Assembly (NCBI RefSeq): GCF_963921235.1
Contig: NC_086108.1
Location: 66,962,001-67,026,000, forward strand
DNA length: 64,000 nt
Origin: Mobula hypostoma
Taxonomy: Eukaryota
Direction of reading: 5' to 3'
In this document: positions 10,542-36,319 of the stretch, in pieces
Layout: each line of letters begins with the position of its first letter
Numbering within the stretch: the first letter of the stretch is position 1
Notes under the pieces: generated by a model
Told to the model about the DNA's origin: nothing
Databases searched by the model: none
What the model saw: the letters and a program-made list of their open reading frames with translations, nothing else
Position numbers and translations under genes: made by a program

Positions 10542-11159
10542 TTGTGTTCCAGTTCCAGTTGTGCTGTGGCTCCCTTCTTCTCTCCTCTTCACAAAGAGAA
10601 CATGTAAACATGGGGTTTCTTAATGAATTAAAATTGAAATCAGACCAATTGCAAAACAGAGTCAGTGTTTTTTTGGGGGGTAAACTCACAAATATCACTT
10701 CTAATTTGAATCAATTAATTTTTGACAAGTCTGATAGTTGTGGTGTAAAGATAAAAACACACAAGCAGTCAAATAACTGTAGCTTGGTTTGACAAATGGT
10801 ATGTAACATTTAAAATTCTCAGCAATATTGTGCTTAGAATCTTATTAGAGCCCCCAAAAGACTCCTGATAATATTGACTCAATTTAGTTTAGGCCAGGGT
10901 GAAATGTGTATTGCCTAATAACTTCCAGCTTACTCACTAAGGTCCACTTTGTTTTCAGTAGGCTGGAAGGGTTCTGCTCGTAGTTTAGCCGTGTCCATTT
11001 TTTACATGTTAGGTGTTGATGGTACCAAGTCTGCTTTAGTCTCAGTTGTTAAGTCAGCTGCCAGATTCAGATGAGTAGAAAGTGGCTTCTGTTTCCCTCC
11101 TTTCTGATACTGAGATATTGGCACGGTTCTAGTCTTTTGAACTTCACCTGTTTTAATCA

Positions 11160-13423: not shown

Positions 13424-15629
13424 TCACCTCTATTGTCTTTTGTGCTAGAACATGTCTATGAATTAGAAGAACAGAAATGTACTGTTCCTTTTCTGGGGTA
13501 TCTAGACCTATGTGAACAGTGTGTACCTCAAGCGATCAAATGGAAAATCATTAATGAGCAGTTCAGTCTGAATAAAGATGTGTCAGAATGTTGCATTCAA
13601 CACCAATTCAGCTACAGAAAATGATACAAAGAATGGAAAAATAAGACTGGATTAATGGAGAGAGAGAAAAAGGAGAATTTTTCAAAAAAAAACAAAGATT
13701 AACTTTATATGTCACATGTACATTGAAATATACAGAGAAATGCATTGTTTGCATCAATGACCAACACAATCTGAGGATATACTGGGGGCAGCCTACAGCA
13801 TTATTAATACATAGTATTTGTGCTTTTAAATCTCTGAAGGAAATTAAACAGAGAAAGGGTGAAGCTCTTTAATCATAAAGGATCATTTTCAAAAGTAGGG
13901 AAATTGCTTGATCATAATTAAGATTTACAATATTGTTAACAGGAATGGACATCCCCAAAGTTCTGCGAGTGGATTTAGTACATAATAACCAGTTAAATAG
14001 AACAACTTCATGCCATTCAATGTATTCAGAAGATGAATCTTTCAGTGAGATGTCGTCACACAGCTTCTGAGGGATATTTTAAATAGCACTATTTCCATTT
14101 CTTCATTTAACCACAGTGGTGCAATTACTTAAAATGGTTTTTGTTTTCAATGCAAGTTATTGATAAATAATTAGCTGTGCTGCTGTTCTTACTATTCAAT
14201 CCAGTCCATTTTGACAAGAACAGGATAAAGTTTCTTAAAAAGAAAGGTGAAAACAATAAATCTGAAGTGACATATGTACTCAGGTTACTGACCTGAATTT
14301 TTAATTTTCAAACACTATAATCCTGTGGAGTGAGCTGGGATATGCTTAGTTTCCGCTGAATTCTGTAATATTTAAAGCAATGGCATTTCACATTTTTGTA
14401 CTGATCCGATCAAAGTGTTTTATGAATAAACACAATTCCTCTACACCACAAACATCTGGAATTGTAAAATGTTTTACAATAATTACCACTCAGAACGTAG
14501 CAGCTGGGAGAACCATCAGTGTGCAGAAAGAATGAACAGGACTCTATGGATGGATGTGTGGTTGAACAGAATGAAAGGTGGATTCTACCGGAACAGTACA
14601 ATGAATTGATATATCCAATTGGTAGTCTGTTCAATATTTGGAAAATTCTTAATTATAATTCCTCAGAAAAACTTCCACAGGAAGAAAGAAATTTCTCCTT
14701 AATCCCCTTTCCTGTCTTCTCAATTTCATTACTTTAAGCTTACCTTTTCCTCTAGTGGTACATTGAATGTGTTTTGCAGTCCAGTCTGCATACCCCATAA
14801 GCAACATCGAGAATGGTCAGCGTTATCAGAAAAAGAATGTTATGCTGCACATTTTGTGTAGTGAAGAACAGTAAAGCCAACAGCGATGGTCATTGCTTTT
14901 ACACACAGAATCACATATCAGCTTCCAGAGCCTACACAGCCAGTATGAACAAGGAGATCAAAGTGTTACTGAAAGAGACTTCACTCTCCTGTACAATGGC
15001 CGCCGCAATGCACCTTGACTTTAGACTTGGTTCTGGTTTTGTGTAATGGATAGAACTGCATGTCCTGTTCTGTAGTTTCACAGAGTTGCCACTTCACACT
15101 TAAAAAGTTTGAAGCTGACTCTTGTCCCTTGATCTGATGGAAATCATAGAGCAAGGAACATGCTAGCCATAATGTTGCAGATCTATCAGTGTCAGTGTCC
15201 CTGCCATCTCAAGGCGGTCATTCTACACAGCACAACAACGGAGTCCTTAATATTAATTCAGGCTTCTATCTCCACAAGAAATCGCATCAACCAATACTGT
15301 TGTGTATTAACTATAGATAGAGTGTTAAGGTTGAGGGAGATACAGGTTTCCTGACAGCCTACCATGGACTCAGTGTGGTAGCTATATTCATCAAGATTCT
15401 GCCAAGTTGGTCAGTAGTAATTATAAATAATGCTTCCAAAAACTTTGTACAAGTAAAATATCAACAATCTAAATACAGGAGAGCCTGTCTGGCTTTGCTT
15501 TGAATACATTTCCCAGGCAACGATTCCCATCTCCGACAAATCTGTGCCATGGGGTCAACTCTTTCACCTCCTTGGCATAAGAGTTTTCATCACATCTCTG
15601 CTCATCCACTAAAATTGATCATTTTCATT

Positions 15630-15955
15630 ACAGTGATGCAGCAGTTGGAGCTACTGCGGCCTCACAGCCGCGGTGATGCAGGTTCAATGCTGACCTCAGA
15701 TATGTCCATTTCCTTTTAGAGATTCAGCGTGGAATAGGCCCTTCGAGCTGCGCTGTCAACAATACACTGATTTAACCCTTGCTAATCACAGGACAATTTA
15801 CAATGACCAATTAACCTACTAACCGGTACATTTTTAGAATGTATCAGGAAACCTGAGCACCCGGAGGAAAGCCACACATTCCACAGGGAGGATGTGCAAA
15901 GTTTTTGCAGAAGACGGAATGATTGAACTCAGACCTCCAACACTGTAATATGTTG
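15630..15955. mobile_element. V-SINE head (+, about 15630-15705) joined to a V-SINE copy (-, about 15712-15955)
   Basis: gcctcacagc...gcaggttcaatgctgacctc head, then a reverse V domain gagcacccggaggaaagccac. Confidence 0.75.
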
Positions 15956-16177
15956 TGCAAACTCCTACGCCACTGTCTGTCGTTTTGGGTTTTGCATCTT
16001 CTGTCTGCAACTGAGTGGCTTCCTCTACTTCCAAACAAAAGAATTACTAAGCAATTAACAGTGTATTGTAAAGAGACTCAGAAAATTTATAGATCTACAC
16101 GTGTCACTGGATGGTGAAATCATTACATCAGAAAAATGAAGGATGTACGCAAGCCACATGTGTTTACGAGTTGGTGA

Positions 16178-18871
16178 GTTGACTATTGCCCAGTGGCACT
16201 CACATCTACTGTGCTGAAGTGCTTTGAGAGGTTGGACATGGCTAGAATCATATCCTGCCTAAGCAAGGAGCTGGACCCTTTGCAATTTATCTATTGCCAC
16301 ATTAGGCCTACAGCAGAGGCAATCTCACTGGCTCTCCACTCGGCCTTGGCTCACTTGGACAACAGTAATACCTAACATGTCAGGCTGCTGTTTATTGATT
16401 ACAGCTCAGTGTTCATTACTCTCAGTTCAAATCAACAAGCTCCAGAACCTGGGACTCTATACTTCCCTCTGCAGCTGGATCTTTGACTTCTTTACTGGGA
16501 GACCATAGACTGTGCAGATCAGAAATAACATCTCAACAATGGTGAGCCTCAGTAATGCGTGCTTAGCTCACTGCTCTTCTCTCTCTGCACCTACTATAGT
16601 GTTGCTGAGCACAGCTCAAACTTTATCTATAAATTTGCTGACAACACAAATATTTGCAAAATTTCAGATGATGAGGAGGAGGCAAACAGAAGTGAGATAG
16701 CTGTTTGAGTGGTGTCACAGCAACAATCTTGTACTCAGCATCAGTAAGACCAAGGAGCTGATAGTGGACTTCAGGAAGGGGAAGTCGAGAGAACACACAC
16801 TAGTCCTTCTCAAGGGATCAGAAGTGGAAGGGCTGAGCAGTTTCAAGTTACTGGATGTCAATATCTCTGAAGATCTATCCTGGGCCCAACTTTTCTTTTA
16901 TTGTTCATTCATTTACAGGATGTGGACACTGCCAGCTAAGCCAGCATTTATTGCCCATCCCTTGCTGCCCTTGAGAAGGTGGAGATGAACTGCCTTCTTG
17001 AACCACTGCAATCCGAGGTGTAGGTACACCGACAGTGCTGTTAGGGAGGGAATTCCATAATTTTGACCCAACAACAATGAAGGAACTGTGTTATGTTTCC
17101 AAGTCAGGATGGTGAGTGACTTGGAGGGGGATTTCCAAGTAGTGGTGTTCCCTGGTATCTGCTGTTTGCATCCTTCTACATGGTAGTGGTCATGGGTCTG
17201 GAAGGTGCTGCCTTAGGAACTTTGGTGTGTTGTTGCAGAGCATCTTATAGAAAGTATACACTGCTGCAACTCTTCATCGATGGTGGAAGGTTTGGATGCT
17301 TATGGAAGCAGTACCAATCAAGTGGGCTACCTTGTATTGGATGCTATCAAGCTTCTTCAGTGTTGATGGACCTGCAATCATCCAGGTGAATGGCGAGTAT
17401 TCCATTACTCCTGACCTGAGCCTTGTAGATGGTGGACAGGCTTTGGGGAATCAGGAGGTGAGTTACATGCCACAGGATTCCTAGCCTTTGACTTGCTCTG
17501 GTAGTCACAGTGTTTATATGGCTAGACCAGTTCAGTTTTCTGTCAATGGTAACCCCCAGGATGTTGACAGTAGGGGATTCAGTGATGGTGATACCTCTGA
17601 ATGTCAAGGGACGATGGTTAGAGCCTCTCTTGTTGGAGATGGTCATTGCCTGGCACTTGCATGGCTCGAATGTTACTTGTCACTTGACAGTCCAAGCCTG
17701 GATATTGTCCAGGTCCTGCTGCATTTGGGTATGAACTGCTTCACTATCTGAGGAGTCACAAATGGGGCAGAACATTGTGCAGTCATCTGCGAGCATCCCC
17801 ACTTCTGACCTTATGACAGAGATGTCCTTATGTCATTGATGAAGCAGCCCTAGGACATTTCCCTGAGGAACTCCTGCTGAGATGTCCTGAGGATGAGACC
17901 ATTGACCTCCAACCCCCACGACCATCTTCCTTTGTATCAGGTATGATTCCAACCAGCAAAGGGTTTTTCCCCTAATTCGCATTGACTCCATTTTAGCTAG
18001 GGCACCTTGATGCCATACTCGGTCAAGTGTTGCCTTGATGTCGAGGGCTATCACTTTCACCTCACCTCTGGTATTTACCTCTTTGGTCCATGATTGGACC
18101 AAGGAGGTGACGACATCAGGAGTTGAGTGGCCTTGACAGAACCCAAAATGGGCATCCTCAAGCAGGTTATTGGCGAGTAGGTGCTACATGATAGCACTGT
18201 TGATGACCCCTTCCATTACTGATGATTGAGAGTAGGCTGACAGGGCAGTAATTGGCTGGGTTGGACTTATATTTACAAATTGATGTAATTACAAAGAAGG
18301 CACGTCAGAAACTATATTTTATTAGGAGCTTGAGGAGACTTGGTATGTCACCCGAGGCTCTTGCAAATTACTATAGATGTTCCATGGAGAGCATCCTAAT
18401 TGATTGCTCCACTGTCTGCTATGGAGGGGCCACTGTACAAGACTGGAAAAAGCTGCAGAAAGTTGTAATTTCAGCCAGCTCCATCATGGGCAATAGTCTC
18501 CTTAGCATCCTGGACAACTTCAAAAGGTCTCAAAAAAGGTGGCATTTATCATTAAGGTTTCCCTTCACCAAGGACAGGCCCTCTTCTCATTGCTACCATC
18601 AAGGAAGAGGTAAAGGAACCCGAAGACACAAACTCAACATTTCAGGAACAACTACTTCCCCTCAGCCATCAGATTTCTGAATAGACAACGAACACATTCA
18701 TTCAGTATTTTTTCTTCTCATTTTTCACTACTTATGTAATTTAATTTTCTTTTTTATATATACTTCATTGTCATTCATAGTTGTCATTATGAATTGCAAT
18801 GCACTGCTGCCGCAAAACATCAAATTTTATGACATATGCCAATGATATTAAACCAGATTTCTGATTCTGAT
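16178..18871 (+). mobile_element. Rex1-clade LINE (RT to 3' end), split at 16890/18275 by a nested LINE
   Basis: ALTSTVLKCFERL...DPLQF...ISEDLSWAQ resumes after the insert as IDVITKKARQKLYFIRSLRR. (TTCTGA)n tail at about 18860. Confidence 0.9.
16891..18274 (-). mobile_element. CR1/L2-group LINE fragment nested in Rex1
   Basis: ALDIKATLDRVWHQG...WLESYL...GVPQGNVLG and ILGVTIDRKLNWSSHI...IYKAQVRS, with a 3' tail aataaatgctggc...cacatcctgtaaatgaatgaa. Confidence 0.9.
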
Positions 18872-20395
18872 TTATTCAAGATCTGCTATCCATTTAATAA
18901 TAGTTACATCAGCACATGCTGCTGTCATAATTCAGGGGATACTTTGCATTTTTCTTCATCATGCAAACTGAAATAGAGCTGGGAATGAGCCAGGTTTCCT
19001 GCCTTCCCTGTGGGGTGCGGACAACCTACTGCTTATGACTATGCTGAGTACATGACAATCATCTCCTTACAGGCTGAGGATGCTTGTGCTGGGGTAGGAG
19101 TTCAGTACTTCCCACACACCATAAATAAATAGCATTTATCCATTTTCCACTATCTACTCAAGTTGAGGGTTGAAGTTAAATGGAACCGATTTTAACTGGT
19201 GGTGAGGGGTGAGATGGGAGGAAATTACTTCTTAGTCCTTCCTGTTCTTATTTCATTGACTACAGTTTCAAAACAAGGAAGGATGACCCTGAGGAGGCAG
19301 AGTCCTTTTTAAATTAGTACTCAGCTCCGATGACATGTTCTGAGGCTGTCTTCTTTAATCATGAGACTGCACGGGCACAGAGGTGACTTTCTCACCAGTC
19401 TATCCGGTCACCAAAAGAATGTAAAGCTTGCAGGGGCAGCATGAAAACTTGTAAAGGTTTCCTTATAATTCTGTAGCATATGTACTTCTGTGGATCCAAA
19501 CCTCGCCCTCTTTTGCCCTTAGCTTCTGCAACACTCCCTCATCTCCGGAGTTCTATTTCCCTCCTGAGCTCCTTCAAGGTGCAGATCGTGATAAAACATA
19601 CATACATCTCACGGGAGTGAATTCTGAGTAATCAATTTTCATTAATTGCTTATTGTAACCATAGTTTTGAATCACAGAAATAATGGCTGATTTTTCCCCG
19701 CAGGCTTTTATCACTGCCTTGGTTGAAATCCAGTCTAACACAAGGGACTTCACTTTGCAGCTTAACTGGTTTGCTGTTAATATGCATTGTGATAAATCTG
19801 CTTATGTCATTTGAATGTGAGGATCTGGTCTAGCCATGAGAAGAGAAGTAAGATGTGTAGAAAAATTTCAAAGTGCGTCCATGACACATAATACCAAGCT
19901 ATTATGCAAAATATGACTTGAAAATTGCTACTACCACCTGCATTTGTAGAGTCACACGGGCAAAATAAAAATCCACTTACTTCCTTGAACACCAGTGTAA
20001 AAATGGTAAGAAAATACATGATGTCATATAAATTTACAATTCAAGCATTCGCAGTTTTCTGAGGAGGATTTGTAGAGAAGCCATATCAGAAATATTTCCC
20101 AATAAAAATCATCACATTTAGTCCTTAGTCACGTTTACCATATGCACACCATAGTTGGGTCTCTACAATGCAGTAGAGTAGAGTACACTCAGCTTCCACA
20201 GATTTTGGAAGCAGAGAGTAACATTCAGCTGCTGGGCACATGTGACTTAGGACAATTTTTCACTTATGTTTCTTTAAAATAACTCAGTTTCCTGAAAGAA
20301 ATCTTCAGTAGAAAACTTTTAGAAAAGGTAAAACCAATAGTGCTTGCTGTTCTTTTACTAATTTGCAATAATTTCTACTTAATTTGGTTCATTCT

Positions 20396-20426
20396 TCCCC
20401 TAGGCCTGAGTCGACGGTAGTAGTAG
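20396..20426 (+). mobile_element. 31-bp extreme 3' end of the RTE family seen at 5638
   Basis: cctaggcctgagtcgacggtagtagtag with TSD TTGGTTCATTCT / TTGTTTCATTCT. Confidence 0.85.
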
Positions 20427-20649
20427 TTGTTTCATTCTGCTATGAGATGCTCAAGTTATTTCTTTCGTCCTTTAACTTCTTTGGTCACTCTCATTTAAAT
20501 TTAAAGACTTGTTGATATACAGAAGCTTGAATGTGGGAAAGATTCTTTATAACTTCAGTCTGGATTTTACCAATACATTTCCAGGGGAGATTTGATCATG
20601 TCCTATCAAACTAACCTCTCCTCACAACATAATAATGCCAAGTTTATAT

Positions 20650-21200
20650 TTACGGTATATAGTATCCTTCATGCAGCTGAATATTTTAAGGTATAACAGA
20701 GGGAAAAAGACATTGATCAGAGCAATATAAAGAGATCTTTGGTCAGCTAACTCAAAATTTCAAAGAGATTTTTTTTAAAGAACATCCAAAAGAAGAAAGG
20801 ACAATTAGAGTTTTAGAGAGGAATCAGAGAACTTAGAGAAATGGCTGTTGAAGGAGAAGTGTTTAAATCAAGAACATGTAGGTGGCCAGACTTGGAGGAG
20901 CTTAGATTTTCAGCGGGTTACTGGGAGAAGGGGTGCAGCTGAAGCTATGGGAGAACTTGGAATCAAGGACAAGTAGTTTAAAAAATAGGTATTGCATAAT
21001 GGGGAGTAAATGGATGTCAATGAACACATAAATTAAAGAAAAAAGACACTAAGAGCCAGGACACATGCCACAGAAGTCTGAACAACTTCAAGCTTTCAGA
21101 GAATAGACTGTGAGAAGTTTGCTAAGGACTCATAGGAACGGTTAAGTAACAAGATCATAGTTACTGTGCCAGTGAACACATGGAATATGACAGCACAGTG
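20650..21200 (-). mobile_element. Ancient L2-like LINE 3' region
   Basis: Purine-rich decayed tract typical of reverse L2 3' ends and resembling the reverse complement of 46930-47515. Confidence 0.45.
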
Positions 21201-21302
21201 GAGGAATAGGTTAAAGAAACAGAAAGGAGTCTGGGGTAGATCCTATAACACCCAAAGATGCTTTAACATTTTTAAAAATATATTTTCAAATAAGTTTTAG
21301 AA

Positions 21303-22822
21303 TAGTGGTCGCCAACCAGTCGATCGCAATCGACCGGATGATCTTTGAGACTTTCCCAGTTTATCCCAAAAAAAAGAAAAAATAAATACACAAATACATT
21401 ATGCCTGATAAACTTTTTGATGCAAATATGTAGTAAATTCTATTTTGAAAAAGGACCACTCGACAACTTCATGCCCAAAAGGAACAACTTTATCTAGGAC
21501 AGTGAAACGATATTCGCATACAGAGGTTTTCACTAAAGTGCACTGGGCAGAAAAGACTGGAAGGAAAACCCCGCGACCCCTGAAACAATCTCTCTTTACA
21601 AACAGCTTTCTGTAGTGGGAGTATTGCTATATTACCATGATCCTAACTGGTATTAACTTATCGTTATAATGCTCACATTACCACTTCTCCCCCTTTAAAT
21701 TCCAACATTCCCCAAATGTAAAAGAAATGGGAAACAAAAACAGTGGTGTCATTAGCTTGCATACCCCTAAAACATATACTAGTGTCTCAGTAACAGTTTA
21801 CCAATACCAGGAAAGTTGAGGAGCTGAAATCAGGGTTGAAGGCTCAGCAAACATGCTGCTCAGAGGACGTGCATCGACAAATGTTATAGGACTTGTCACT
21901 CTGTGAATATTTTTCACGACAGTTCAGTGAATTCCTGGATGTAATACAAACAGCTCAGCTTGTTGTATTTGTCATAACGGCTTTCCAGGATTTTACAACA
22001 AAGGAGGACTTCCTCACTCTTTTGCACTTAAAGAACAAGAAGTGAGGATATTTACAATGAGTTTTAAAAAAATGTCTGTGAAAGTAACATCCCCATTCAT
22101 AACGGAGGGGGAACATCGACTCAGACCATGACAGGACTGTGTCGGGCATTTTCATGCCTTACAAGGCGCAGATTGGAAGTCTGTGTGGGGCGCCACTCCT
22201 CACACAGACACTAGAGCAATGTACGGTTAAGTGCCTTGCTCAAGGACACAAACACGCTGCCACAGCATAGGCTCGAACCAGCGACCTTGAGATCACTAGA
22301 CGAACGTCTTAACCACTTGGCCACGTGCCCAACAATTCATAAACTGGCGGCAATTACTACTGATGAGGCCCCAGCAATGCGCGATGTGCGTGTTGGGTTT
22401 ATAGCACTGTGCCGTAATGACCCTGATTTTCTCAACTTCCTGAATTGTCACTGTGTGATTCATCAGCAGGCCTTGGCTGGGAAGGTCGTGGACTTTTCTC
22501 ATATAATGATGCTGGTGGTCAAACTGATAAACTTGATTCGAGCAAAAGCACTTCAGCACCGCTTATTCAAAGCGTTATTGGATGAGCTCAATGCTGCTAT
22601 GGCCTGTTTGATATGCTATTTACAGTGTTTTCTTGGTTGAATTAATTTGAAAGTTTGAGAAAAGCATTTTATGTAATTAAAATACAATTAGCCCAAATAA
22701 AGGGCCTCAAGTTGAAAGTACAATCTGAGCTGTTTTTTCTCTAAACGATTTAGTAGGTCGATCTTGCCTTTCGCTAAGGCCAAGGTAGGAGATCTTGGGT
22801 TTAAAAAGGTTGGTGACCATTA
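21303..22822 (+). mobile_element. Internally deleted hAT DNA transposon (Buster/Charlie-type transposase relics)
   Basis: TIRs tagtggtcgccaacc / ggttggtgaccatta, a perfect 8-bp TSD TTTTAGAA, and the remnant ITTDEAPAM...HCVIHQQAL...LQHRLFKALLDE. Confidence 0.92.
22103..22334 (-). mobile_element. tRNA-derived CORE-type SINE nested in the hAT element
   Basis: A box TGGCCAAGTGG, B box GGTTCGAGCC, CORE-like gtgtccttgagcaaggcacttaacc and TSD ATTCATAA. Confidence 0.88.
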
Positions 22823-23034
22823 TTTTAGAATTATTTAAATTCCTTGAAAATGTTTTTAAATGTCTTCTGTTGATTCCTCTATTCTCCTTTCTTCTTTTAA
22901 TAAATATCTCTTTGAAACTTTGAGCTACCTGACCAAAGATCTCTTTATATTGTCCTGATCAATGTTTTTAAGGCAGTCCCAAGTCCTTTCTTTCCATGTG
23001 TTTGACATGAAAGAATCTTTTGCTGTTGATCAGT

Positions 23035-23136
23035 GTCAAAACACCAAATTAAATCCACAGTGATTTAATGTTGTAAAACAATAAAACATGAAAACTTCCG
23101 GGGTGGGGAGGGGGTGAATACCTGTTATAGGCACTG
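23035..23136 (+). mobile_element. Tc1-like transposon terminal fragment
   Basis: ...ggggtgaatacctgttataggcactg matches the reverse complement of a Tc1-type cagtgcc...tattcacccc TIR. Confidence 0.6.
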
Positions 23137-23144
23137 CATGCATG

Positions 23145-24201
23145 TGTAACATGCTGTAATGTTTCACTGCTAATGTAATGATTTCTCTGTAGCACAATGT
23201 TTGGGTTATGACTAGACATAACGGGGCTTTGGAATGTTGTTCTTTCTTGGGAGTCTGGAAGAGAGTTTTTCGCGGTCTTTTGCCGGGGAGAGACGAGGAG
23301 AGAAGGCGCAAGTGGAGAGAGTTGGTAGACCGCTGGACAGAGTGGACTTGGAGCAAGGGTCCGAAGGTCAGTGACGAATGAAGGAGGTCGATGGTGGACG
23401 AACGGTTTATCAGTGAGCTCCAACGTTTGCGCATTAGACTGTTTTGTGAGAATGGGACCTTTTTCTTTTTTTTTTGTTTTCTTTACTAACTACATAGTCA
23501 AATTAAACTTATAAAAGCTCAATTGTTTAATCGTATATTGTGCACTGTTTATTATTTTGTAGTACTGATTTGTAGCATCCACCCAAATGAGATTTCTGAA
23601 GTTTGGCCGGGCTGAGGGGCTGTTGCCCCCTATATTAAGCCACTAGCTGAAGTGAGAGTCATGTATGTGTGTATGAACACTGGGTGGAGAGGTTTTGTGA
23701 GGGGCGCTAAGATTGGTCTTGGTCTTTGTTCAGTGGGAGAAGGAGAAAGAAGATGCAGGAGAGAACCGGTCGTAGGATTTGATCCAGGGGGAATGGAGCC
23801 AAGGCATGGTCTACCTTGGTGAATATGGCTTATGGAAGATTTGATCTCCAATATGTGTACATTTGACTGTTAATTATAATGGACCCTTCTTGTTTTTTTC
23901 CTTTCCTTTCTTTACTAACTCTTTAGTTAAGTTAACATTCATAAATATATTTCTTTATAATTGTATGCAGTGTGATATCTGTTATTTCATGCTGATGGGG
24001 ACAGTAAATCACACAGGATTCACACAAAGCGGGATTTGAGTGGGTGAGACATCCCAATCTCACAGACTTGGTGGGACCAAAGTTGTGTACACTCTAGAGA
24101 TATGAAGCTGAAGAAAGGTGGGTTTGTCACTACGGAGTCCAGAGACTGCTAGCGAGGGGCTAACGAGCCGTTAATAAGACGCCGAGCAAAAAGGAGATAC
24201 A
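23145..24201 (+). mobile_element. Two tandem, diverged LTR-like units (about 23145-23661 and 23670-24201)
   Basis: Begins TGTAAC and ends ATACA. Both units share ctccaa...gactgtt...aatgg(g)acc-T-rich-ctttactaact and GA-rich blocks. Confidence 0.5.
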
Positions 24202-24317
24202 TGGGGATATATGCACATACATATATAAAAACAGTAGGACAGTATAGAACAGTACAGTGGTGCGGATGGTAGAGCTCCAGTTCAAAGTAAATTTATTATC
24301 AAAGTACATATATGTAT

Positions 24318-24502
24318 GGGGTGTCAGGGAGGGGTAGCACCTCTGGTGGGGTAACATGTCGCGTCCTTTTCAAGGCAGTTAGTCCACCTTTGGTCCCCAG
24401 CTGGCACTCAGCCCTCACCTGTGGCTCCCTGTAGCTGTTTGCATGCGACAGCGGCCACACCCCGGGCAATGGCTTCGACAAGCCGGCTAAACCAGGTGAG
24501 GG
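24318..24502 (+). ncRNA. HDV-like self-cleaving ribozyme fold
   Basis: P1 GGGGTGT(24318-24)/ACACCCC(24457-63); P2 CCCTCACCTG(24412-21)/CAGGTGAGGG(24493-502); P3 GGC/GCC; L3 TCCCTGTA; P1.1 CC/GG(24464-65); P4 TGGCTT/AAGCCG; J4/2 G-C(24487)-TAA. Confidence 0.8.
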
Positions 24503-24893
24503 TAGCCGACGGGTCTCAAACCTTCGGTGAGATAGGGAGTTGTCTATCCCAGCATGTGAAGACAGACTCCGGCGGATTGAGCGGACGAGACCAATGGAAG
24601 GTCCAACGGTCAAGAAGGCGGTCTCTGCAAGCGTCATGGAACGTGTAGAGCAGGACAAGACACAGAAGACGTCCTGGTCATCCACTGCGCCTAGTCCCAT
24701 CTCCAGCCATCTCGACTCTGTCTTGCCACTGGATCCAGATGGGAATTGGGAAGAGAGAGTGAGGCTGACGCTGCGCAACTCTCCCTCACTTAAATCCAAA
24801 TCAAGCGCTAGTCTCGACACCATCAATAATGGTGTCAAGGTCTTCATCGACATTGACAATGGATGAACAAGAACAAGAACAAGAAGAAGAAGA
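24318..24893 (+). mobile_element. Non-autonomous non-LTR retroelement (Vingi/Ingi- or RTE-type bipartite) with a 5' ribozyme
   Basis: GC/CpG-rich 576 bp with no Pol III A/B boxes, 3' hairpin gacaccat-caata-atggtgtc, (AACAAG)n(AAG)n tail and a short TSD ATGT. Confidence 0.75.
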
Positions 24894-26749
24894 ATGTCAC
24901 CATATACAACCAAGATTCATTTTCTTCCAGGCATATTCAATAAAAAAAACTAGAAAAATAACTATAACAGAATCAATAAAAGACTGCACCAACTTAGGCG
25001 TTCTCACAGTTTCTGTGACATTGGCTCTACCCTGACCTCAGGTACTTTCTGAGCAGAATTTGTATGTTTTACTTGTTTCTTCCGTGTGCCCCAATTTCTT
25101 CACCTATCTCAAGATTTTTGGATTGCCAAGTTTGCTCACTGTAAATTGGAAGAATCTGGGGGTGGAGGAATTTGTAGGAATCTAGGGAAAATAAAAGTAC
25201 TGAAGTAAAGCTATTTATATTATTTCATTATAAACTGTGCGTGACATTTGGACGTGGAGTCAAAGACTATGGACCAGATTTGTGACACAGTCTTTTGTTC
25301 TAGAGGTTAACTGTCTGTGGGGAAAAATAATCTTGATCAGTCACAACTTCTGAAAACCACTTCTTTGGTTAATTTTCAAGTGTTCTAAGTTGCAAGAATG
25401 GATAGTCATCTTTGAAGAGCACTGTACGTCGTGAAAGCTAGTAGAGTTGTGAAGGCCCGTTTGAGCAAGTTCCTCTTCAGGGACAGGCACTCAGCTTGTA
25501 CACTTTGAAGGCCTTTCTAGTTCCAAATTCAAGCAGGATATGCTTCTCCGTCCTGCAGCATTTATTCACAATCACTTCTGAGACTTCTGCACAGTAGTGA
25601 GCAGAGTGGACATCAAAATCAAACTAACCTTGCCAGCAGATCTCTTTGGAACTATTGGTTAAGGGAATGACTTTAGAGGCCATTAAGCTGTGGTCAAACT
25701 TACTTTGATCATTTTGGTTTCCAGACCAAATGCACCATTAATAAATGCAAAATATTTATTTTCCTTCTTTCACCTCTGTTAAGCATATTCTGCACCAAAA
25801 TCTCAGATAAATATTCTTGGAGCATTCTTGTAGCAGAATGAGCAACATGTACTTGCAACACTGGGTCAAAACCAAGAAAGATATGAGATTAGTTTCCGAG
25901 CAGAGTGGCAGAAACCATTTTTACTGGATGGTGGCTCAAGTATGTGGTCTCTTAGTTCCTCATGGTCGGAGGGAGAAAAGTTAACCAAACTATCTACAGA
26001 GCTAAAGGGTAATCAAGTTCACACTCAGCTGAGACCCTTACCCTTCTCTTATCTAATAATGTTCATTCAGATTTTTACCTGAAAAGTATCTGTTTAGCTA
26101 GGATAACTCCCATTCTTCTTTGGCAGTATTTTAGAATTAAGGATAACTTGCTTCCACTGCAGATCTGTAGATTCAGAAGTGGCTTTTGAGACCAACGTGG
26201 GACCCACAGGTTTTGCCACAGGTGGGACAGGAGGTGTTAGATTTACACAGCAACTTCCTGATTTATGCTGTATTACAAGTCATTTTGCACTGTGAAGATG
26301 CACTCACCAAACTGATCATACTTCTTTCAATTCCACAAAGGCTTTTATTCCATCTTTTGGGGCTGGTTCAGATCAAAGCAAAAAATACATTGTTTTTCCA
26401 TTCAAACATACCACAAAATTAACTTCCTTAAGCACAATAATTTAAGTATCTGCTTTCAGGATCGCATGTTAGCCAAAAATGCCATGACATCTTCTACTAA
26501 TTAGCAAAATGGACCAAAACTGACGGAGGGCTACCTGCTAGTAGAAACATAATATAAAATTAGCAGGCAAGGTTATGAGAGGATAATGAGGGAGAGGGAT
26601 TGCAAAAACAAAATTCTGATATCTTTTGTTCATCAGAGAATGTGGTTGTGAGAAAAATACGTTGAATTTATAATGTCATTGTAAATCCCCAAAGAATTCA
26701 CTAATGTCCTTTGCGAAGAAAAATCTGCCATTGCTTACAAGTTTGGCCC

Positions 26750-27090
26750 ATAAGAGGCAGAGATAGAATGGATAACCAGAGGCTTTTTCCCAGTGTGGAA
26801 ATAGCTAAAACAAGGGAATAGAATTTTAAGGTGATTGGAGAAAAGCACGGAAGGGATGTCAGAGGCAAGTTCTTTACACAATGAGCAGTGGGTGCATGGA
26901 ACTCTCTGATGGGGTGGTGATAGAGGCTGATACATTGGGGCATTTGAGAAACCCTTAGGTAGGCACATGGATGATAGAAAAATGGAGGGTTACATAGAAG
27001 AGAAGGGTTAGATTGATCGTAGAGTAGGCTAAAAGGTCAGCACAATGTTCTGGGCTGAAGGGCCTAAACAGTGTTTGACGTTCCATGTGT
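26750..27090 (+). mobile_element. CR1 LINE 3' end
   Basis: aggctttttcccag...ttctttacaca...tggaactctctg...gggctgaagggcct. Confidence 0.85.
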
Positions 27091-28699
27091 AGTTTTACTA
27101 CCACATCAAGGTAGCTAACTGGTTTCTGAAGTGGCTGAACAAGACATTCATTTCCATAAAACTGCTGTTACTGCACAGATTGAAACAGTTCATAAAGAAT
27201 GTTTGTGATAGTCAAGAATTGAAGTTGCTGCTATACACTTAGCAATTGTTTTTAGTTTGATTATTTAATTTCTTTATAAACAAAACCACTTAAAAATAGT
27301 ATATTCATCAAGAAAATCAAAAGATTTTCTTCTAATCTTTTCCAGTTATGTGATAGTGGCTGCAATTTACTTGCTATAACATGGCTTATTTGCACACATC
27401 AAGATAGCACCATTAAATATAATTTCAAAGCTTAATTTTTGGCTTGCAAATAATCTTAAAATATTAACTAAATGGCAGCATATGACTGGCAATGGATCAC
27501 TTCTAAAACCACATCAATGACTCCTTTCCAATGTTTGGGAAGGAATTAAATAATCAGACTGAAAATATATTTGCCATGAATATTTCATCTGATTATACTT
27601 GAATTTCTAACTGTATCACACATACACAGCAATGGTTTGATACTTCTCAGGGCAACTAGCAACATACAATAAATGGCAGCCTAGCACATTCCAATAATCA
27701 ATTTACAGCAAACAAGCTAAATTAAATAGCGTCAGCATTGGGATGAGTGTCTGTGGGGGTGTGTGAGGGTGTGTGTGTGGGGGAAGGTAGAATAAATTCC
27801 ACCTATTCTATTGTTTTAAAGTTGAGTTTATCAAAAGGACAGCAAACCCATTTTGAGATCTATTCTTAGACATAAACAGTTTTGTCAGTTAGCTAAAATC
27901 AGGGACAATCGTTTAAGTTAATAGTTTCCTGAAAGGAAGGATTTGTGTCAGTGCATGCAGACACTGAATCTAAATCAATTTTTTAAAAAAGCAGCCACTG
28001 TATCAGGTAAACACAACAGAAAAACGTGATCATGACATTTAGATCCATAAAAGATTGATAATTTATTATGTTCTTAGTTGTGTGTGAAGGATAGGCCTTA
28101 TTTCTTTAAACAAATGAAAAGTACTCTGGAGATTAGCTGAATAGAAACAAACCTCCCCATTAAATCCAGCCTTTCCAAAGGCAAAACTGTAATTTTGCAT
28201 TCAATATATAAAGAACAAAGTATGCAAAATCTACATACCTGTATACCAAAGAATTATAATGGTAATGATAATGAAAATGAAAAAAGAACAAAATCAGTGC
28301 TGAAAGATGAAGCTGAATGCCAAATCATCATTTTATTTAAATGCCTCTATTGTTAAGAAATGGGTTTCTTTGAAATTCAGTGCCACAAACAAGCTGAAGC
28401 TTACATCAGTGCCTGTAATTTTTTGAAGTGTACTTTCCCAATTGTTCATTTTTTATACAATGAATATTCTTCTCTAATACAGTAAGATAATTGGGAACTT
28501 TTTTTAAATCAATTACGTTGTTTTATTTCAACATTGAATACATATATCATAACATTTTACTCTCTTTTAACCTTGCTAACCCACTAAAGAAATCATTAAA
28601 AAAATCAAAGTAATCATGTAAAATACCCTGTAGAACAATTTTAAATAAGACCAGAGGGATTAATCTCTCACCTAACACCAGTTATACATTTCCTGGTAA

Positions 28700-29210
28700 T
28701 TATTGCACCTAAGTTTGTGAGAAGTTGCTGTGTGCCACAATTCCTACTACACAATAGTGTGTAAACTTTAATAGTACTCATTGGCTAAAAATTTCTTTAG
28801 GATATCCTAAGGGATTCTCAATAAACGTAACTCTTCCTTAACTTACACATAATGTCACATAAAATCGCTTTGAAATACCTCAAATCACTTTGTATAAAGT
28901 GTAGAAATAGAGAAGTTGTTAATGTGTTGACCAATAGGTCAGCCACTCTGCACACATGACTTCCATCAAGCACAGAAAAATGCTATGACTAGTTAATCTG
29001 TTCCTCATGATGTTAAAGTGAAAAATTATACAAGATAGCAGAGGTTGTGATGTTTCAGATCTATCTCAAATGCTTCAAATTCTCGCTCAGCCGAAGTACA
29101 ATGCCCACTATAATGCAGTACTGCGCAGGAATGCCAAGTGTTTAAGTGGAATTAGGGCTTGAGTTCACAATTCTCCGAGTATAAATCACTGAAACTACCA
29201 AATGAGTTAA
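28700..29210. mobile_element. Two ancient DeuSINE-like relics, tail to tail (+ about 28700-28830, - about 28840-29210)
   Basis: ttgctgtgtgccacaattcctac...agtactcattggct on the plus strand, followed by a decayed reverse copy. Confidence 0.45.
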
Positions 29211-29254
29211 ATTTGCAAATACAACATCACAAGAACTGCTAGCTTCATCTTCTT

Positions 29255-30660
29255 ATAGATTCATAGATGTATACAACACGCAGTGAGGCCATCTGGCCTA
29301 CCACATCCACTCTGACCAGTGGGTACTCAACCACACTAATCCCATTTCTGAGCACATAGCCCATAACCATTTATGGCTAAAAAGATCAAGTTCTCATTTA
29401 GATACTTCTTAAATGCCTCTTCCGCCATTCTCTCAGGCAGTGCATTCCAACTATTCGCCACTTTATGTGTGGAGAAGGCCCTGCTCATATCCCCACTGAA
29501 TCTTTTCCCCACTGCTCTACTCTCTACATACACATGACTGTGTGGCTAGGCATAGCTCAAATACCATCTATAAATTTGCTGATGATACAACCATTGTTGG
29601 TAGAATCTCAGGTGGTGACGAGAGGGCGTACAGGAGTGAGATATGCCAACTAGTGGAATGGTGCCACAGCAACAACCTGGCACTCAACATCAGCAAGATG
29701 AAAGAGCTGATTGTGGACTTCGGGAAGGGTAAGACAAAGGAACACATACCAATCCTCATAGAGGGATCAGAAGTGGAGAGAGTGAGCAGTTTCAAGTTCC
29801 TAGATGTCAAGATCTCTGAAGATCTAACCTGGTCCCAACATATCGATGTAGTTATAAAAAAAGGCAAGACATCAGCTACACTTCATTAGGAATTTGAAGA
29901 GATTTGGCATGTCAACAAATACACTCAAAAACTTCTATAGATGTACCGTGGAAAGCATTCTGACAGGCTGCATCACTGTCTGGTATTGGGGGGGTGGGGG
30001 GGCGCTACTGCACAGGACTGAGAGAAGCTGCAAAGGGTGGTTAATTAGTCAGCTTCACCTTGGGTACTAGCCTACAAAGTATCCAGGACATCTTCGGGGA
30101 GCAGTGTCTCAGAAAGGCAGTATCCATTAAGGACCTCCAGCACCCAGGGCGTGCCCTTTTCTCACTGTTACCATCAGGTACACACTCAGCAATTCAGGAA
30201 CACCTTCTTCCCCTCTGCCATCTGATTTCCAGATGCACATTGAACGCTTGGAGACTGCCTCACTTTTTTAAAATATACAGTACGTATTTCATTTTTTTGC
30301 ACGTTTTTAATCTATTCAATATACATATACTGTAATTGATTTATTATTATTTTTCTCTTCAATATTATGTATTGCATTGAACTGCTGTCGCTAAGTTTAC
30401 AAATTTCACGTCACATGCCGGTGATAATAAACCTGATTCTGATTCGGATTACCCTAAATCCGTGTCCTCCTCTTTTGTCTACTTCTAACTTGGGAATATG
30501 TTTCCTGCAGTCTAACCTCTCTATACCAGATATTTTTATATACATCTATCATGTCCCCTCTTAACCTCCTCCACTCCAGACCTAGCTTCACCTAAGTGAA
30601 ATCCTCCACCCCAGGCAATATCCTGATAGTTTCAGTATCCCTTCGACACAGTATCATATT
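29255..30660 (-). mobile_element. CR1 3' fragment split by a Rex1 insertion
   Basis: FSTHKVANSWNALPE...AFKKYLN on the minus strand. The CR1 sequence continues at 30450 (accctaaatccgtgtcctc). Confidence 0.8.
29509..30449 (+). mobile_element. 5'-truncated Rex1-clade LINE nested in CR1
   Basis: YKFADDTTIVG...WCHSNNLALNISKMKELIVDF...SFKFL, with tail aataaacctgattctgattc. Confidence 0.92.
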
Positions 30661-30923
30661 AGTATACCTATACCTTATGAAATCATTTTAAACTTGTCCA
30701 CCCTATTTTTACAATGTTTGTATAGCAAAATGGAAACCTGATCATGGCATAGTTAAATGTCAATTCTGGAGCTAAAAATCACATTTACCTGTGATGATGT
30801 AAGCTAGGCTCCCTCCCACTGCAAGTTACACATTTTTAAAGGTGTTATAGTAAAACATACATTTTGGATATTCAGTTCTGAAGGTACAGAAATGAACACG
30901 TCCCTGTCCTAATGTCTACAGTT

Positions 30924-31119
30924 TTGGCTGTAGTGGCATCAGCGCTGGATTACAAGGCGAATGGTCCTGAGTTCGAGTCCGGCCGGGTCCCATCCTTGGA
31001 GCAGCAGTATCTGTGTGTAAGAAAGGTCTGCCACTCTACTTCCAAAAACCCAGTGGACAGCTACACTATCCATAGGGTTGCCATGAGTTGACGACAACTC
31101 AACAGCACTCAACAACAAC
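30924..31119 (+). mobile_element. tRNA-derived SINE with an RTE-type 3' tail
   Basis: B box GAGTTCGAGTCC, tail catagggttgccatgagttgacgacaactc...(AAC)n and TSD CTACAGTT. Confidence 0.8.
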
Positions 31120-32106
31120 CTACAGTTACTAAAACACTCCTGACTCCTGCTTCTTATTCCACGACTATTTTATTTGCAATGATTTCAAACACATTTTCAT
31201 AAACATTAAGTAGCCTAAATAAGCATTTACTTCTGAGTCAATTCACAACAAAGCCATATATTTAAGTTAACCAAAAATCTATGCTGAGATTTAGTTAACT
31301 TCACACATAGTTAATAAATCACAGTACTAAGAAAAGATAAGAGGCCAACCTAAGTGTTCATTTAGCTTTCCTTCTTTCATCACAATAGATTCACCTGCAC
31401 ACTAAAATGCAGATGGTGCATTTAGGTGGTGCCTTTCACATTCTCAAAGCATTCCAAGTCCCTTACAGCCAATAAGGTTTTTTTTAAATATAAGATATGC
31501 TGAATGTCACTTTGTTAAATAAGTGCAGCATATGTAAACATCCCACAAAGCACTAAAGTAAATGACCAGCTGCAGAAAGTTACTGTCTATTACATGTACT
31601 AAACTAGCGGCATACAACGCATATCCAGCCTATCAGGATGATGTCAGGTTCAGGATAAGGTTGGGTCAAGTATCAAAGTATTCTAAGTCCTCAGGCTCAG
31701 TCCCGATAGGCCAGACAAATGCTTTAGAAATGAGGATATTAAGGCTCAGAATTTCATATAGTTAGCTAAACCAAACCAAACAGGACCTAACCATGTGCCA
31801 GGTTAAAAACAGACTTGGGCTCAAAGCTAAATACACAGTATCATGGTATATCCGTATAAGACTCCATTTCCACAATTCTACTAACTTCATTGAAACAGAA
31901 TGTTGGAATCAGAGCTCAGATCACATATATCATCACATCACATGCTTAACATTGTGATACGAAGGATGGATTCCTACCTCCTATTGGTTGAAGTATGATG
32001 GTCAGTCAGGAATCTGGAATTAAAACCGTGGATTTTTAAAAAATAGTGCCACGTCTCATTTGTTCTAACTTTCTGTATTCTGTTACAGCCAATTCTATCT
32101 ATGCTA

Positions 32107-32169
32107 ATATACTCAGCGGCCACTTTATTAGATACCACCTGTACCTAATAAAGTAGCTACTGAGTATAT
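32107..32169. mobile_element. Tc1/mariner-derived palindromic MITE
   Basis: 29-bp inverted repeat atatactcagcggccactttattagatac / gtacctaataaagtagctactgagtatat with a 5-nt spacer and TA flanks. Confidence 0.7.
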
Positions 32170-32199
32170 GTTCACAGTCTTCTGCTGCTGTAGCATTGT

Positions 32200-32830
32200 A
32201 GAGTAGTGGTGAGCACAACGCTTTACAGTACCAGAGCCACACCACCCCAGCATCCCCCAACAAACCTGATTAACGCTAACCCAATCATGAGGCAATTCAC
32301 AATGACAAGTTAGCCTAGCTTTTGACAGGGAGGAAACAAGAGCACCAAAGAAAAACCCACGCGTTCCACGGGGAGGATGTACAGACAGCGCCAGAATTGA
32401 ACATTGGATTCTGGAATGCACCAAGCTGTAACAGCATCATGCTACCCACTACACTACCATGCTGCCGCGTCTCTCCCTGGAAATCCAAGTACACTAATTC
32501 TGTTGGTTCCCCTTTATCCATTCTCTTCAGCATGTCCTCAAATAACTTTCAAACGCAAGTTAGACTTCATTTAAGGATCCAGCTCTGATTAATCTACATG
32601 CCATGATTAATGATTCCAGAACTTTTCAGTAAATTGCTTTCTAGGATAGGGCTTAATGTTTGCATTTTTCCAACGCACTGGAAACTTTCCAGAGTCCAGG
32701 GAATTTTGGAATCTTCAACCAAATCATCCACTATCTCTATTGACACTTGTATAAAGACCCTCAAATGTGAGTAAAGAGGTCTAAGGGACTTCTCCACCCT
32801 TGGTCCAATTTGTTTGTCAGGTTTTTTTTT
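32200..32830 (-). mobile_element. V-SINE (about 32200-32468) adjoining a decayed CR1 RT fragment
   Basis: V domain present, then MDKGEPTELVYLDFQ (a CR1 RT motif). Confidence 0.7.
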
Positions 32831-33034
32831 CTTCTAATGGACTTCTACTTAGTCACCTTCATTCTCCTTGATAGCAGTGAAATAAGACTCCACTCCCTCA
32901 AAATCCTTAAGTGACTGTTGAAAACTGTCTTTTCCTCGAGAGTGGGAACACAGGATAATTCTCCCTTCTTTCTAGTTCAGGGGCACTGAGGAAAAGTCCA
33001 GAAGTTGATTAGGCTGTGATCAGCTGATCACCAG

Positions 33035-34493
33035 GCAAAATGGCACCAGTGAACCCCGATGACACGTTGCGGGCAGCTTAAAAAATTTCTTAACATACTT
33101 CTTCTGAACGACTCTCACTGCAAACTGCAAGATTACTGTAGCCTGTAATTTCCCTTTAAGTAAGGTAGTTCTGAATCATCTTAACAAACTAGTGATTTCA
33201 CAATCTTCTAAAGGACTTGGCAGACTTAACTCTCAAGCATGCAGGTACAGCACCTTTAAATGGATGAACGTATATCACCACGGCCATAAGAGAGGGAGGT
33301 GGAGAGGACTCCAAGCCAGACTAAAACATTGAGGCAGGAAGCTCCCATCTTGATTGCAAATGTACAATTGTTGGAGACTAAGGGCAAGATTGCTGGACTG
33401 GAGGGAAGTGAAGAATTGCTGTGTTCTCTGCTTCATGGAGCCATGGCTTACTCTGTTCAAGCTGGATACATTGGTAAGACCCGAGGGCTTCCTGACACAC
33501 AGGATGGACTGGGCTGCTGATGCAGAGATTTTCACAATAAACTCTTTGTGGTACTCCAATTCAGCAGTCTTGCCACACTCTTGTTCCCCAGACCTGGAGT
33601 ACCTAATGATTAAGTGCTAACAGTTTCACTTACCAAGAAAGTTCTCCTCCTTGATCCTGACCACAGTTTAAATACCACCAAAGGCAAATGTTAAACAGCC
33701 ACTTACAGCACTGATTACCATGATCAACAAACAAGAAACAGCCTACCAAACATCTTTCAAATCATTATCAGAAACTTCATTTAGGCTTATTTGAAGAAAT
33801 CTCCGCCCAATTATCATCAATCTATTACCTGCAGCACCAGGGTTCCGAACACACTACCACTGCTATAATACAATTAGGAATGTATTACCTGCCTAGACAA
33901 CATTTCAGGAAATTTGGTCACTTGGCTGGCCTCCTCCTGCTTGCATACAGGCAGAGGCTAAAGAGCAAGTCTCCAGAGGTAAAGGACAACAAAGAGGTGG
34001 TTGTGGGAGGCAGACAATTGGCTACAGGATTTGTTCGAGTCAGTGGACTGGGCCTTGTTTAAGGACTCAGGGGATTTGAACAAATACACCATGGTTGTCA
34101 CAGTCTTTATAAAAACAATCGTACATGAGTGTGTCCCCACAAAATTATTCAGAGTTTTCCCCAACCAAAAGCTTTGGATGAACCATGAGATCTGCAAACT
34201 GTTCAGTAACATTCAGGTCTGGTGGCCAAGTAAAACACATGAGGTCCGGAAAGCCACGTCACATGCCAAGTGACAATTCTGGACCAAACTTGAATCACTG
34301 AAGGATGATCAATAGCTGTGACAGGGCTTGAATGCTATCACCTGCTAAAAAGTGAAACTAAGTCGGTGACAATGAGGCTTTCCTCCCAGATGAGCTCAAT
34401 GCCTTTGATGCTCACTTTGAACACCAAAATATCAAGGCACCTTCATGACCTCCCAGAGCATATAATAAATTTACTTCGAACTCTGAATTTTGA
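33035..34493 (+). mobile_element. Rex1-clade element with an APE endonuclease region joined to the 3' tail
   Basis: ILIANVQLLE...CCVLCFMEPWL...CSPDLEYLMIKC...LQDLFESVDW...FPNQKLWM, ending aataaatttacttcgaactctga. Confidence 0.75.
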
Positions 34494-36319
34494 CTAAGCT
34501 TATGTATTAATTACACTTCTGACCTGTAGGGTTCATATTATACTGGCAAAATGTTTTAGTTACTGAAAGTCAGAACACAATCACTTACAAATTTTTATTT
34601 AGTTAAATGTATAAGAAATCTATAATAGTGTTCTGTATTCTGTAAGTGTTCTGTATTTCTTGATAACCATTCCTTTAATGGTTCACAGGTGTACAATGCT
34701 AGACAGTCTGAAGTCTATATTCTTGAAACAGAGGAAACTATCTCCAACAAACATTCCAAAAATGATTAGTGACACACCTGCTTCTTCATTGTATTGACAG
34801 TTTGCTGGGCTAAAGCTGCATAAATATGTACATTAATGGAGAGTACTTCATGGTTTTGGAATCTTAAGCACTCCTCTAGAAATAAGAATGAAGTAACTTT
34901 AAAAAGCTTTTCCATCAAACAGCAGTTATCTCTTAAACACACAGACACATTCAAATGCACAGCTCACATAAAACTTTCCTGAAGACTGCCAACAGGAAAA
35001 ATGTGAGGTATTTAAATGTAAGATTGTTTCGGTCAAGAGCATTTTCTCCTCTCAGACTTCAACTAAATATGGGATTACTGTCGAAAAAGCTTCGGTGCAA
35101 TGTATTTTCCTTAATTAAAGTTCTCAGCCAAGAAGACGATTGCAAGAAACAGAAAATGTTGGAAAAATTCAGCAGGTTACGTAGCATTTGTGCAGAGAGA
35201 AAGAGTTAACATTTCCGGTCCAGTTCATGGAATTCCAGCTCAGGTTTGAGAACAGCAACCAGTCTTCACAAGTTAAATTAAATTCAGTCAGTGGAAGCCA
35301 AGATGTGGCAAGAACGGTTGACAATAATTCCTTCCCACTGATATCATGTATCACATTGCCAATCAGCTTTTTAACAACAAATTAAAGCTAAAATCAGACA
35401 ATGGATATGGATGAACAAATATTAGTTTTATAGTTATAATTTTTCAAAGTATAGTCCAAATAGATTAACTTAAATTAACCTGACTTCCTTGTGTAAAATA
35501 CTTATTTGCAAGTACTCAAGATAAATTTAGCAGTATTGTTCATCACTGCTTGAACAATAAACGACCAGTATCAGGGCATCAGCTGGTTCTGCATTTGCAA
35601 TGTGTACAAATTCTCAATACACAAGATAACGTCAGAACCTCCAATGTTTGCTATGATTCAGTAGACATTTCTATGCATAAATAAGATCAGTGTGATATTA
35701 GGTGCAAATGGTGATGGACAACTTACACAGAATTCCACATTTTCAATTTCTCCTTTGCTAAATTTACAAGGGTTCCCCAGGCTACAGAAAATATGACTTA
35801 TGGAAATTGTTCCATGAACCCTAGTATTCAGGAACCAATAGCATTCTCTCCCTTTTTCATGATACCTTCTGATATAAACACAAGTGATGTGACCTCTGCT
35901 AATATTATCATTCTTGCCATTCATTGTCAATGAGGATCCTTCTGGGTAGAAGAGAGACTTGCATTTTCTTCCCCAAATTTAGAATTCAGTATTCGCAGTT
36001 CACAGTGGAGTTTCCTCAAGAATAAACAATTTTGTCCAGTGTGCATGTTTGAGGCTGAACTGCCAGTCAATTGTAACTTTAATTTTTTACCCTACTCCCA
36101 AAGACTTCTCTGCAATAGGCCATTGACACTGTTCTAACGGTGTTCAGAGCATGTTTAAGCATATCACATCATTTTTTGATTGAGGACTTCAAGAACTTTA
36201 CCATTGAGCAGTTTTGATTATAACGGTTTTCCTGGATGGCAGCTGTTGGCACGATTTTAGCATGCTGTACAAGCCTGTGACTTAGCCTCACTTTAACACA
36301 GGCATTGCAGTCTACGTCA

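Follow-up and report, generated by a model that had tools for sequence, protein, structure and literature searches.

The release of retrotransposon 5' ends by self-cleavage is known for R2 and L1Tc and has been proposed for RTE (PMC6765202, PMC3774820, PMC4035085, PMC3414825), and HDV-like ribozymes have been described at RTE 5' ends (Ruminski 2011, cited in PMC5786205 and PMC3774820). Bipartite RTE derivatives were described by Kojima in 2018, together with predicted 5' ribozymes in RTE families (PMC5786205); R2 SIDEs carry active ribozymes (PMC3414825), twister variants at RTE 5' ends have been published (PMC8501958, PMC7761336), and in drz-Agam-2, as the cited account outlines it, helix P1.2 and an extended P2 speed cleavage (PMC4908430). 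That a ribozyme can define where an RTE-type element begins is already known biology. We suggest, with good confidence, that the locus described here is best explained as a truncated copy of a bipartite RTE whose family is headed by a drz-Agam-2-type ribozyme with a hairpin in L3, and that this hairpin would represent a new structural variant of the known HDV-like ribozyme.

The window, by which we mean the whole 64-kb stretch of DNA that was analyzed, contains at positions 24316 to 24893 (plus strand, as for all features below unless noted) a dispersed repeat with 3,944 first-look candidate copies, the best 40 of which, itself excluded, are 95 to 96% identical to it; a 21-base motif from the ribozyme core has at least 2,431 exact matches in the Mobula hypostoma genome, and a control motif has none. 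The element is about 580 nt long and lies in a host repeat between 4-bp duplications of ATGT at 24312 to 24315 and 24894 to 24897, the TGT of the left copy being also microhomology to the element leader. In contigs carrying other copies of the host repeat, the sequence of 24315 runs directly into that found at 24898 onward; the empty-site pattern was absent from the 64-kb window itself. Target site duplications and a simple-repeat tail are present in the family. The remaining RTE 5' UTR segment (24504 to 24825), held in common with the autonomous LINE, is followed by an internal deletion junction near 24826 and then by about 46 nt of RTE 3' end with a (CAA/GAA)n tail (24827 to 24893). A 90-codon open reading frame of the UTR segment (24594 to 24866) reached no Pfam family above the cut-off and is not kept in distant relatives, its frame being lost in L236, L258, and L222; it was taken as incidental.

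Three full-length LINEs (L158, L160, and L216) have their first 517 nt and last 46 nt in common with the element, the shared 5' 517 nt being 92 to 95% identical to the family majority, and seven LINE-type copies are 88 to 95% identical to that majority. Among copies retrieved via the 3' end of the element, the end of an open reading frame precedes that 3' end, APE and RT domains were detected in family copies with Pfam, and L216 holds a single open frame of 1109 codons. Because both ends are common to full-length LINEs and the APE and RT domains are present, the element is, as judged from these alignments, an internally deleted (bipartite) nonautonomous derivative of an autonomous RTE-type LINE of the same genome. 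We take the partner to belong probably to the RTE clade from its anatomy, a single frame with APE and then RT, the tree that we built having contained no named reference RTE. For the APE region of the partner (L216:560-3886, minus strand), the best named matches are proteins of shark and soft-shell turtle, at 82 to 84% identity, and those of lizard, tortoise, and frog reach about 72%, a pattern that hints at horizontal transfer.

The sequence-only reading had proposed a nonautonomous retroelement headed by an HDV-like ribozyme and lacking a Pol III promoter, and both proposals are borne out, the first by the fold described below together with the RTE-type LINE that shares both ends, and the second by the lack of a B box and of a tRNA in the element, in which a single loose A-box match was found at 24503. 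A classical Pol III-headed SINE was rejected on the same grounds, the search for a tRNA, 7SL, or 5S head having yielded no tRNA and no Rfam match in the element. Families of RTE bearing DUF6451 were considered as relatives and discarded, as they have no sequence in common with the element; the viral contigs searched contained no relative, and a variant pattern designed for diverged subfamilies returned only the same family. In a composite subfamily, which accounted for 5 of the 61 copies sampled by pattern, a tRNA-like SINE segment of 130 to 150 nt with A- and B-box-like motifs, negative by ARAGORN, lies at family position ~520, downstream of the 5' part and ahead of the RTE 3' end (loci L130, L131, L133, L135 to L137, L143 to L146, L063, L068, and L069). 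One composite copy (L156; G000:C2:126440200-126444500) is split by an insertion of about 3 kb containing a frame that we presume to be L1 ORF1-like.

In the window copy, the five helices of the HDV nested double pseudoknot can be paired where the sequence-only reading had placed them. P2 is one pair longer than the 10 bp reported (24412 to 24421 with 24493 to 24502), since G24411-U24503 extends it to 11 bp (24411 to 24421 with 24493 to 24503); P3 (24423 to 24425 with 24454 to 24456) encloses a 28-nt L3; P1.1 joins 24427 to 24428 to the GG at 24464 to 24465; the 3' strand of P1 occupies 24457 to 24463; and the P4 hairpin spans 24470 to 24485 (24470 to 24475 with 24480 to 24485). The stretch from 24486 to 24503 comprises J4/2 with C24487 and then the 3' strand of P2. 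The assignment of C24487 as the C75 equivalent stands, the residue lying within a GCUAAAC J4/2 and being invariant in the window copy and in two related loci, L236 and L259, in which the L3 and P1.1 core residues (U24426, C24427-C24428, and G24431) and the joining-strand A residues (A24489-24490) are likewise invariant. We take U24426, G24431, and C24487 to correspond to U20, G25, and C75 in the HDV numbering. Position 24430 is U in the window copy, a minority state, and C in most copies.

A descriptor of our own that allows a hairpin in L3, composed after viewing the site, had its sole match on either strand of the 64 kb at this locus (P3 at 24423, L3 of 28 nt, and C24487), and our canonical descriptor, with an L3 of 7 to 9 nt, had no match in the window. 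When the surrounding 280 nt were shuffled with dinucleotide content preserved, 2 of 5000 shuffles matched the hairpin descriptor, and none did so when P2 was at least 10 bp long; 20 shuffles of the window gave no match. The fold exceeds chance in these shuffle controls, and the HDV-like fold is real. Full-length family copies have the five helices in nested double-pseudoknot order, and of 71 copies, 36 match the descriptor and 16 have a perfect native P1. No Rfam family reached its gathering score in the 64-kb window, and the Rfam HDV-type model gave no match there either at the gathering score or at an E value of up to 10; three Rfam matches at a relaxed cut-off were dismissed as being at chance level. 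The Rfam model Six3os1_1, a conserved mammalian lncRNA region, aligned with 24418 to 24498 at 11.8 bits (E value 6.4, cut-off 50), coinciding with the ribozyme core and retaining several of its words; this is possibly an ancient relic and probably chance.

G24318 had been proposed as the first base of the element. It is not: the family begins 9 nt upstream, at the first of two GGGGUGU repeats. Most of the 30 loci that were examined first carry 9 further nucleotides upstream, repeating GGGGUGU; among loci selected by internal patterns, 77 of 115 of which matched the anchor, 44 of the 77 copies start at -9, 62 start at -7 to -9, 6 start at 0 or -1, and 15 (about 19%) start inside the leader. In 145 distinct copies, the 9-nt leader had at most one mismatch in 87, two or three in 25, and more in 16, and 17 copies were truncated further into the element. 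Target site duplications end 8 to 9 nt upstream of the G24318 equivalent in 26 of 60 copies and at that equivalent in 4 of 60, and sequences upstream of the family start have nothing in common except a T at -1 (34 of 48). The predicted cut site, before the first P1 base of the upstream repeat, coincides with the 5' end of the element, which is not so for G24318. Full-length copies extending 5' of G24318 had been named as evidence against the sequence-only reading; they exist, and its cut site and P1 fall with them.

The position of the family P1 5' strand is 24309 to 24315 in the window, where four G residues of the leader have been lost, the junction being joined in the TGT microhomology, and 3 of 7 pairs remain. 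The window copy is 5' truncated, and as a ribozyme it is probably inactive or slow. In the leader of the family, the sixth P1 base (position -4) is changed from G to A in about one-sixth of the copies with the partner strand unchanged, possibly reflecting a sublineage that spread with an imperfect P1.

Because the window copy is truncated, its RNA could be cut at G24318 only in an alternative register, with the second GGGGUGU (24318 to 24324) taking over P1 and the tandem repeat acting as a backup cut site. We regard this as unlikely. The second repeat does pair over 7 bp with 24457 to 24463 in the window copy, and among family copies that strand is matched equally well by either repeat; constrained folding of the window copy, pseudoknot energy excluded, places the alternative register (-51.1 kcal/mol) only about 2 kcal/mol above the state without P1 (-53.0 kcal/mol), the broken native register lying at -49.6 kcal/mol; and 4 of the 77 copies (L034, L052, L073, and L205) start cleanly at the second repeat. 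The number of these starts, however, does not exceed what microhomology within the repeated word could produce, and the second repeat, which pairs at all seven positions in the family, pairs at only 3 of 7 in L236 (6 of 7 in L259). The alternative register would also have to melt most of P1.2, a helix that gives large rate gains in Agam-2 as described in PMC4908430. For a full-length copy, constrained folding gave -61.2 kcal/mol for the first register and -49.3 kcal/mol for the second, some 12 kcal/mol apart.

The two repeats were separated by evidence from outside the family. Within it, copies decay neutrally, and covariation was uninformative, with none seen for P1; because family copies could not tell the repeats apart, 80 related LINE loci were fetched from metagenome contigs, and two of these relatives contain this ribozyme in intact form: L236, at 62% protein identity, and L259, at 49%. 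In both, P1 changes in step with the first repeat, from G-C to U-A in L236 and from G-C to A-U in L259, and the changed pairs differ in position between the two. The placement of the family P1 strand at 24318 to 24324 is thereby overturned, and with only 3 of 7 pairs in L236, the second repeat is not a conserved P1. On this comparative evidence, it instead forms one strand of P1.2, a helix within J1/2 that mosquito drz-Agam-2 also has. P1.2 (24319 to 24327 with 24401 to 24409; 9 bp here and 10 bp in most copies) closes the J1/2 domain at 24319 to 24409. J1/2 is structured, as had been claimed, but since the family P1 is the upstream repeat, it opens with P1.2 and measures about 95 nt, not 87. 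Its folding relative to shuffles gave z scores of -2.8 for the window copy, -3.9 for L259, and -1.7 for L236. The corrected build, which matches that of drz-Agam-2, runs from P1 through a linker of 1 to 3 nt, the P1.2 domain, and a short linker to the 11-bp P2.

A MAFFT alignment of five rows, representing three independent lineages, was used to examine the remaining helices. Pairing holds in 94.7% of cells across P1.2, P2, P3, P1.1, the L3 hairpin, and P4, the kinship of the five rows restricting the weight of the shuffle control; two-sided changes affect 8 of 38 pairs, compared with at most one in slid controls. These changes comprise 4 of the 10 pairs of P1.2, 3 of the 6 pairs of P4, and one pair of P2, which is 100% paired and has three one-sided changes as well. 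The covariation of P1, P2, and P3 across copies that had been looked for is therefore missing within the family for P1 and present for P1 in L236 and L259, and P2 shows its two-sided change.

The hairpin in L3 (24434 to 24452; 6 bp) is where it had been described, except that it follows L3 position 27 (A24433), with one extra G after it, and does not replace that position. It brings L3 to 26 to 28 nt, compared with 7 to 8 nt in the canonical form. A stem of 6 bp is common to the family, L236, and L259, its loop varying in length and sequence, and the hairpin is kept in three intact lineages and in two decayed ones (L239 and L267). In the MAFFT alignment, four of its pairs are invariant, one has a one-sided change, and none has a two-sided change; a register set by hand in L236 adds one further one-sided and one two-sided change, and the closing pair is changed on both sides in L239. 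Isolated hairpins fold modestly better than shuffles (z scores of -1.4 to -2.1). Taken together, the comparative evidence for the L3 hairpin as a structure is moderate.

A reading in which the hairpin does not form would have P3 close on the GCU at 24434 to 24436; L3 would then be of the canonical kind, 8 nt long, and the insertion, possibly a folding switch, would lie between P3 and P1. The GCU directly after the 8-nt core is kept in all three lineages, and a relaxed scan returns such a register for L259; however, this P3 is weaker, with one G-U pair, forfeits a 6-bp stem that has been retained despite indels in the loop, and interrupts the direct adjacency of P3 and P1 seen in every canonical member that we found. 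We consider it very improbable and retain the hairpin within L3.

Related RTEs include both forms. Among 65 to 68 loci with enough upstream DNA, at least eight carried a canonical L3; clean canonical folds with an L3 of 7 to 8 nt are found at the 5' ends of L242, L252, L264, L266, L274, L280, L289, and L304. Because the relaxed scan was too noisy, with matches in 37 of 65 reverse-strand controls, use was made of clean perfect-core matches only. According to a quick tree of the RTs from 55 of 88 loci, the other 33 having been excluded for a short RT match, the hairpin form requires at least two changes, a single origin is unsupported, and L259 lies outside a well-supported group that unites L216 and L236 with the canonical L242. 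This distribution fits either exchange of the 5' module or repeated loss.

That such an insertion would evade standard descriptors proved correct. The published RNArobo HDV descriptor, as set out in PMC4870747, specifies L3 as TYYHCG plus Y (about 7 to 8 nt) and J1/2 as up to about 50 nt; it fails on a long L3, and because it fixes L3 at about 7 to 8 nt, the hairpin form would be missed. The literature on HDV-like ribozymes, including PMC10879173, yielded no L3 insertion in the text available, and the figures and supplements of the primary papers may already show one. The 7-nt L3 reported for CPEB3 and antigenomic HDV (bioRxiv 2022.09.22.508989) agrees with an optional last position in L3. The L3 insertion itself leaves that position in place. 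The sequence-only reading gives U27 as dispensable in HDV; a literature search for this point found no paper.

The 19-nt insertion lies in a loop that lines the active site and goes well beyond the 7 to 8 nt of other members; the hairpin might therefore disable or weaken catalysis, with the fold retained for a role in translation, 5' integration, or the binding of protein and an internal Pol II promoter fixing the 5' end. An analogue is the dual Pr77 element of L1Tc, a candidate motif in common with the 5' end of a sister family lies at ~24603 to 24621, and L239, a decayed locus, retains the hairpin and P4 after loss of the J4/2 core. Yet U20, C21-C22, G25, the GG, and the C-U-A-A-A joining strand are identical in three lineages whose RTs are 49 to 62% identical, and the sequences of P4 and P1.2 turn over across the same lineages; moreover, the boundary of the element is the predicted cut site. 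We judge the noncatalytic explanation to be quite improbable, and self-cleavage of the family ribozyme, as predicted from these comparisons, to be likely.

We therefore favor a self-cleaving family ribozyme. The first ~195 nt of the family fold as a nested double pseudoknot of the HDV type, built like drz-Agam-2 and carrying an additional 6-bp L3 hairpin. A master copy would be transcribed, most likely by read-through or from a promoter starting upstream; the ribozyme would cleave just 5' of the first G, setting the 5' end of the element; and the partner RTE protein would recognize the shared 3' end and insert the RNA in trans by target-primed reverse transcription. The window copy would have lost its four P1 G residues at integration.

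One sister RTE family, 68% identical in protein, has many long open frames and no HDV-like fold at its 5' end, so such a fold is not required for RTE mobility. This family (L221 to L229 and L233 to L235) has the UTR in common from position 235, at about 76% identity, and its different 5' end carries a twice-repeated motif that is also present in the distant L255; a similar word occurs in the window at ~24603 to 24621, and several copies have GC-rich upstream extensions. The motif is suggestive of either truncated twister ribozymes or a promoter motif; Rfam gave no useful match at the 5' ends of the sister family.

With regard to the host, and to an intron from which the ribozyme might conceivably cleave a pre-mRNA, no exon was recognized among the 298 of 344 reading frames of at least 55 aa that were searched, which yielded retroelement domains and one subthreshold match, a survey that short exons would escape; contigs aligned over 15000 to 34900 gave a repeat signal only and no evidence of splicing. 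Frames for a Penelope-like RT and a GIY-YIG domain lie at 52827 to 54420, and other LINE fragments lie at 9947 to 10588, 17836 to 18677, 29500 to 30067, 50709 to 51230, and 57680 to 58201.

HDV-like ribozymes have been found mainly by descriptors that fix L3 at 7 to 8 nt, and a naturally occurring L3 hairpin that is conserved would broaden the known tolerance of the HDV fold, would offer a new site for grafting domains beside the active site, and would imply a hidden genomic population of ribozymes, with at least 2,431 copies of the core in the Mobula hypostoma genome. We would go further only tentatively, with the chances falling somewhat short of even: the hairpin form may be an active, undescribed subclass of HDV-like ribozyme with an L3 helix, carried on an exchangeable RTE 5' module, hidden from descriptors with a fixed L3, and amounting to thousands of vertebrate ribozymes that have been missed, and in the family described here the doubled P1 strand may give a cut site back to 5'-truncated copies.

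The closest counterpart is drz-Agam-2 of Anopheles, which, as presented in the cited account, also has a nested double pseudoknot exactly where its element begins, a P1.2 helix within J1/2, short linkers, an extended P2, a U-Y-C-x-x-G core, and a C-N-R-A joining strand (PMC4908430). The family described here differs from it in an L3 of 26 to 28 nt with a 6-bp hairpin in place of 7 to 8 nt, in the tandem repeat of the P1 strand, and in that its cleavage is predicted only. In element anatomy, it resembles RTESINE1/2, WALLSI3, and RTE-N2_Lch, which join an RTE 5' end to a short 3' end, lack an open reading frame, and have target site duplications and a microsatellite tail, and it is set apart from them, on the descriptions given in PMC5786205, by a longer 5' part of 517 nt. 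Like the R2 SIDEs (PMC3414825) and NARTc/SIDER (PMC4035085), the element is headed by a ribozyme, is internally deleted, and would be mobilized in trans; it belongs to a different clade, is dispersed rather than specific to rDNA, and carries an L3 insertion that does not feature in the accounts of those elements cited here.
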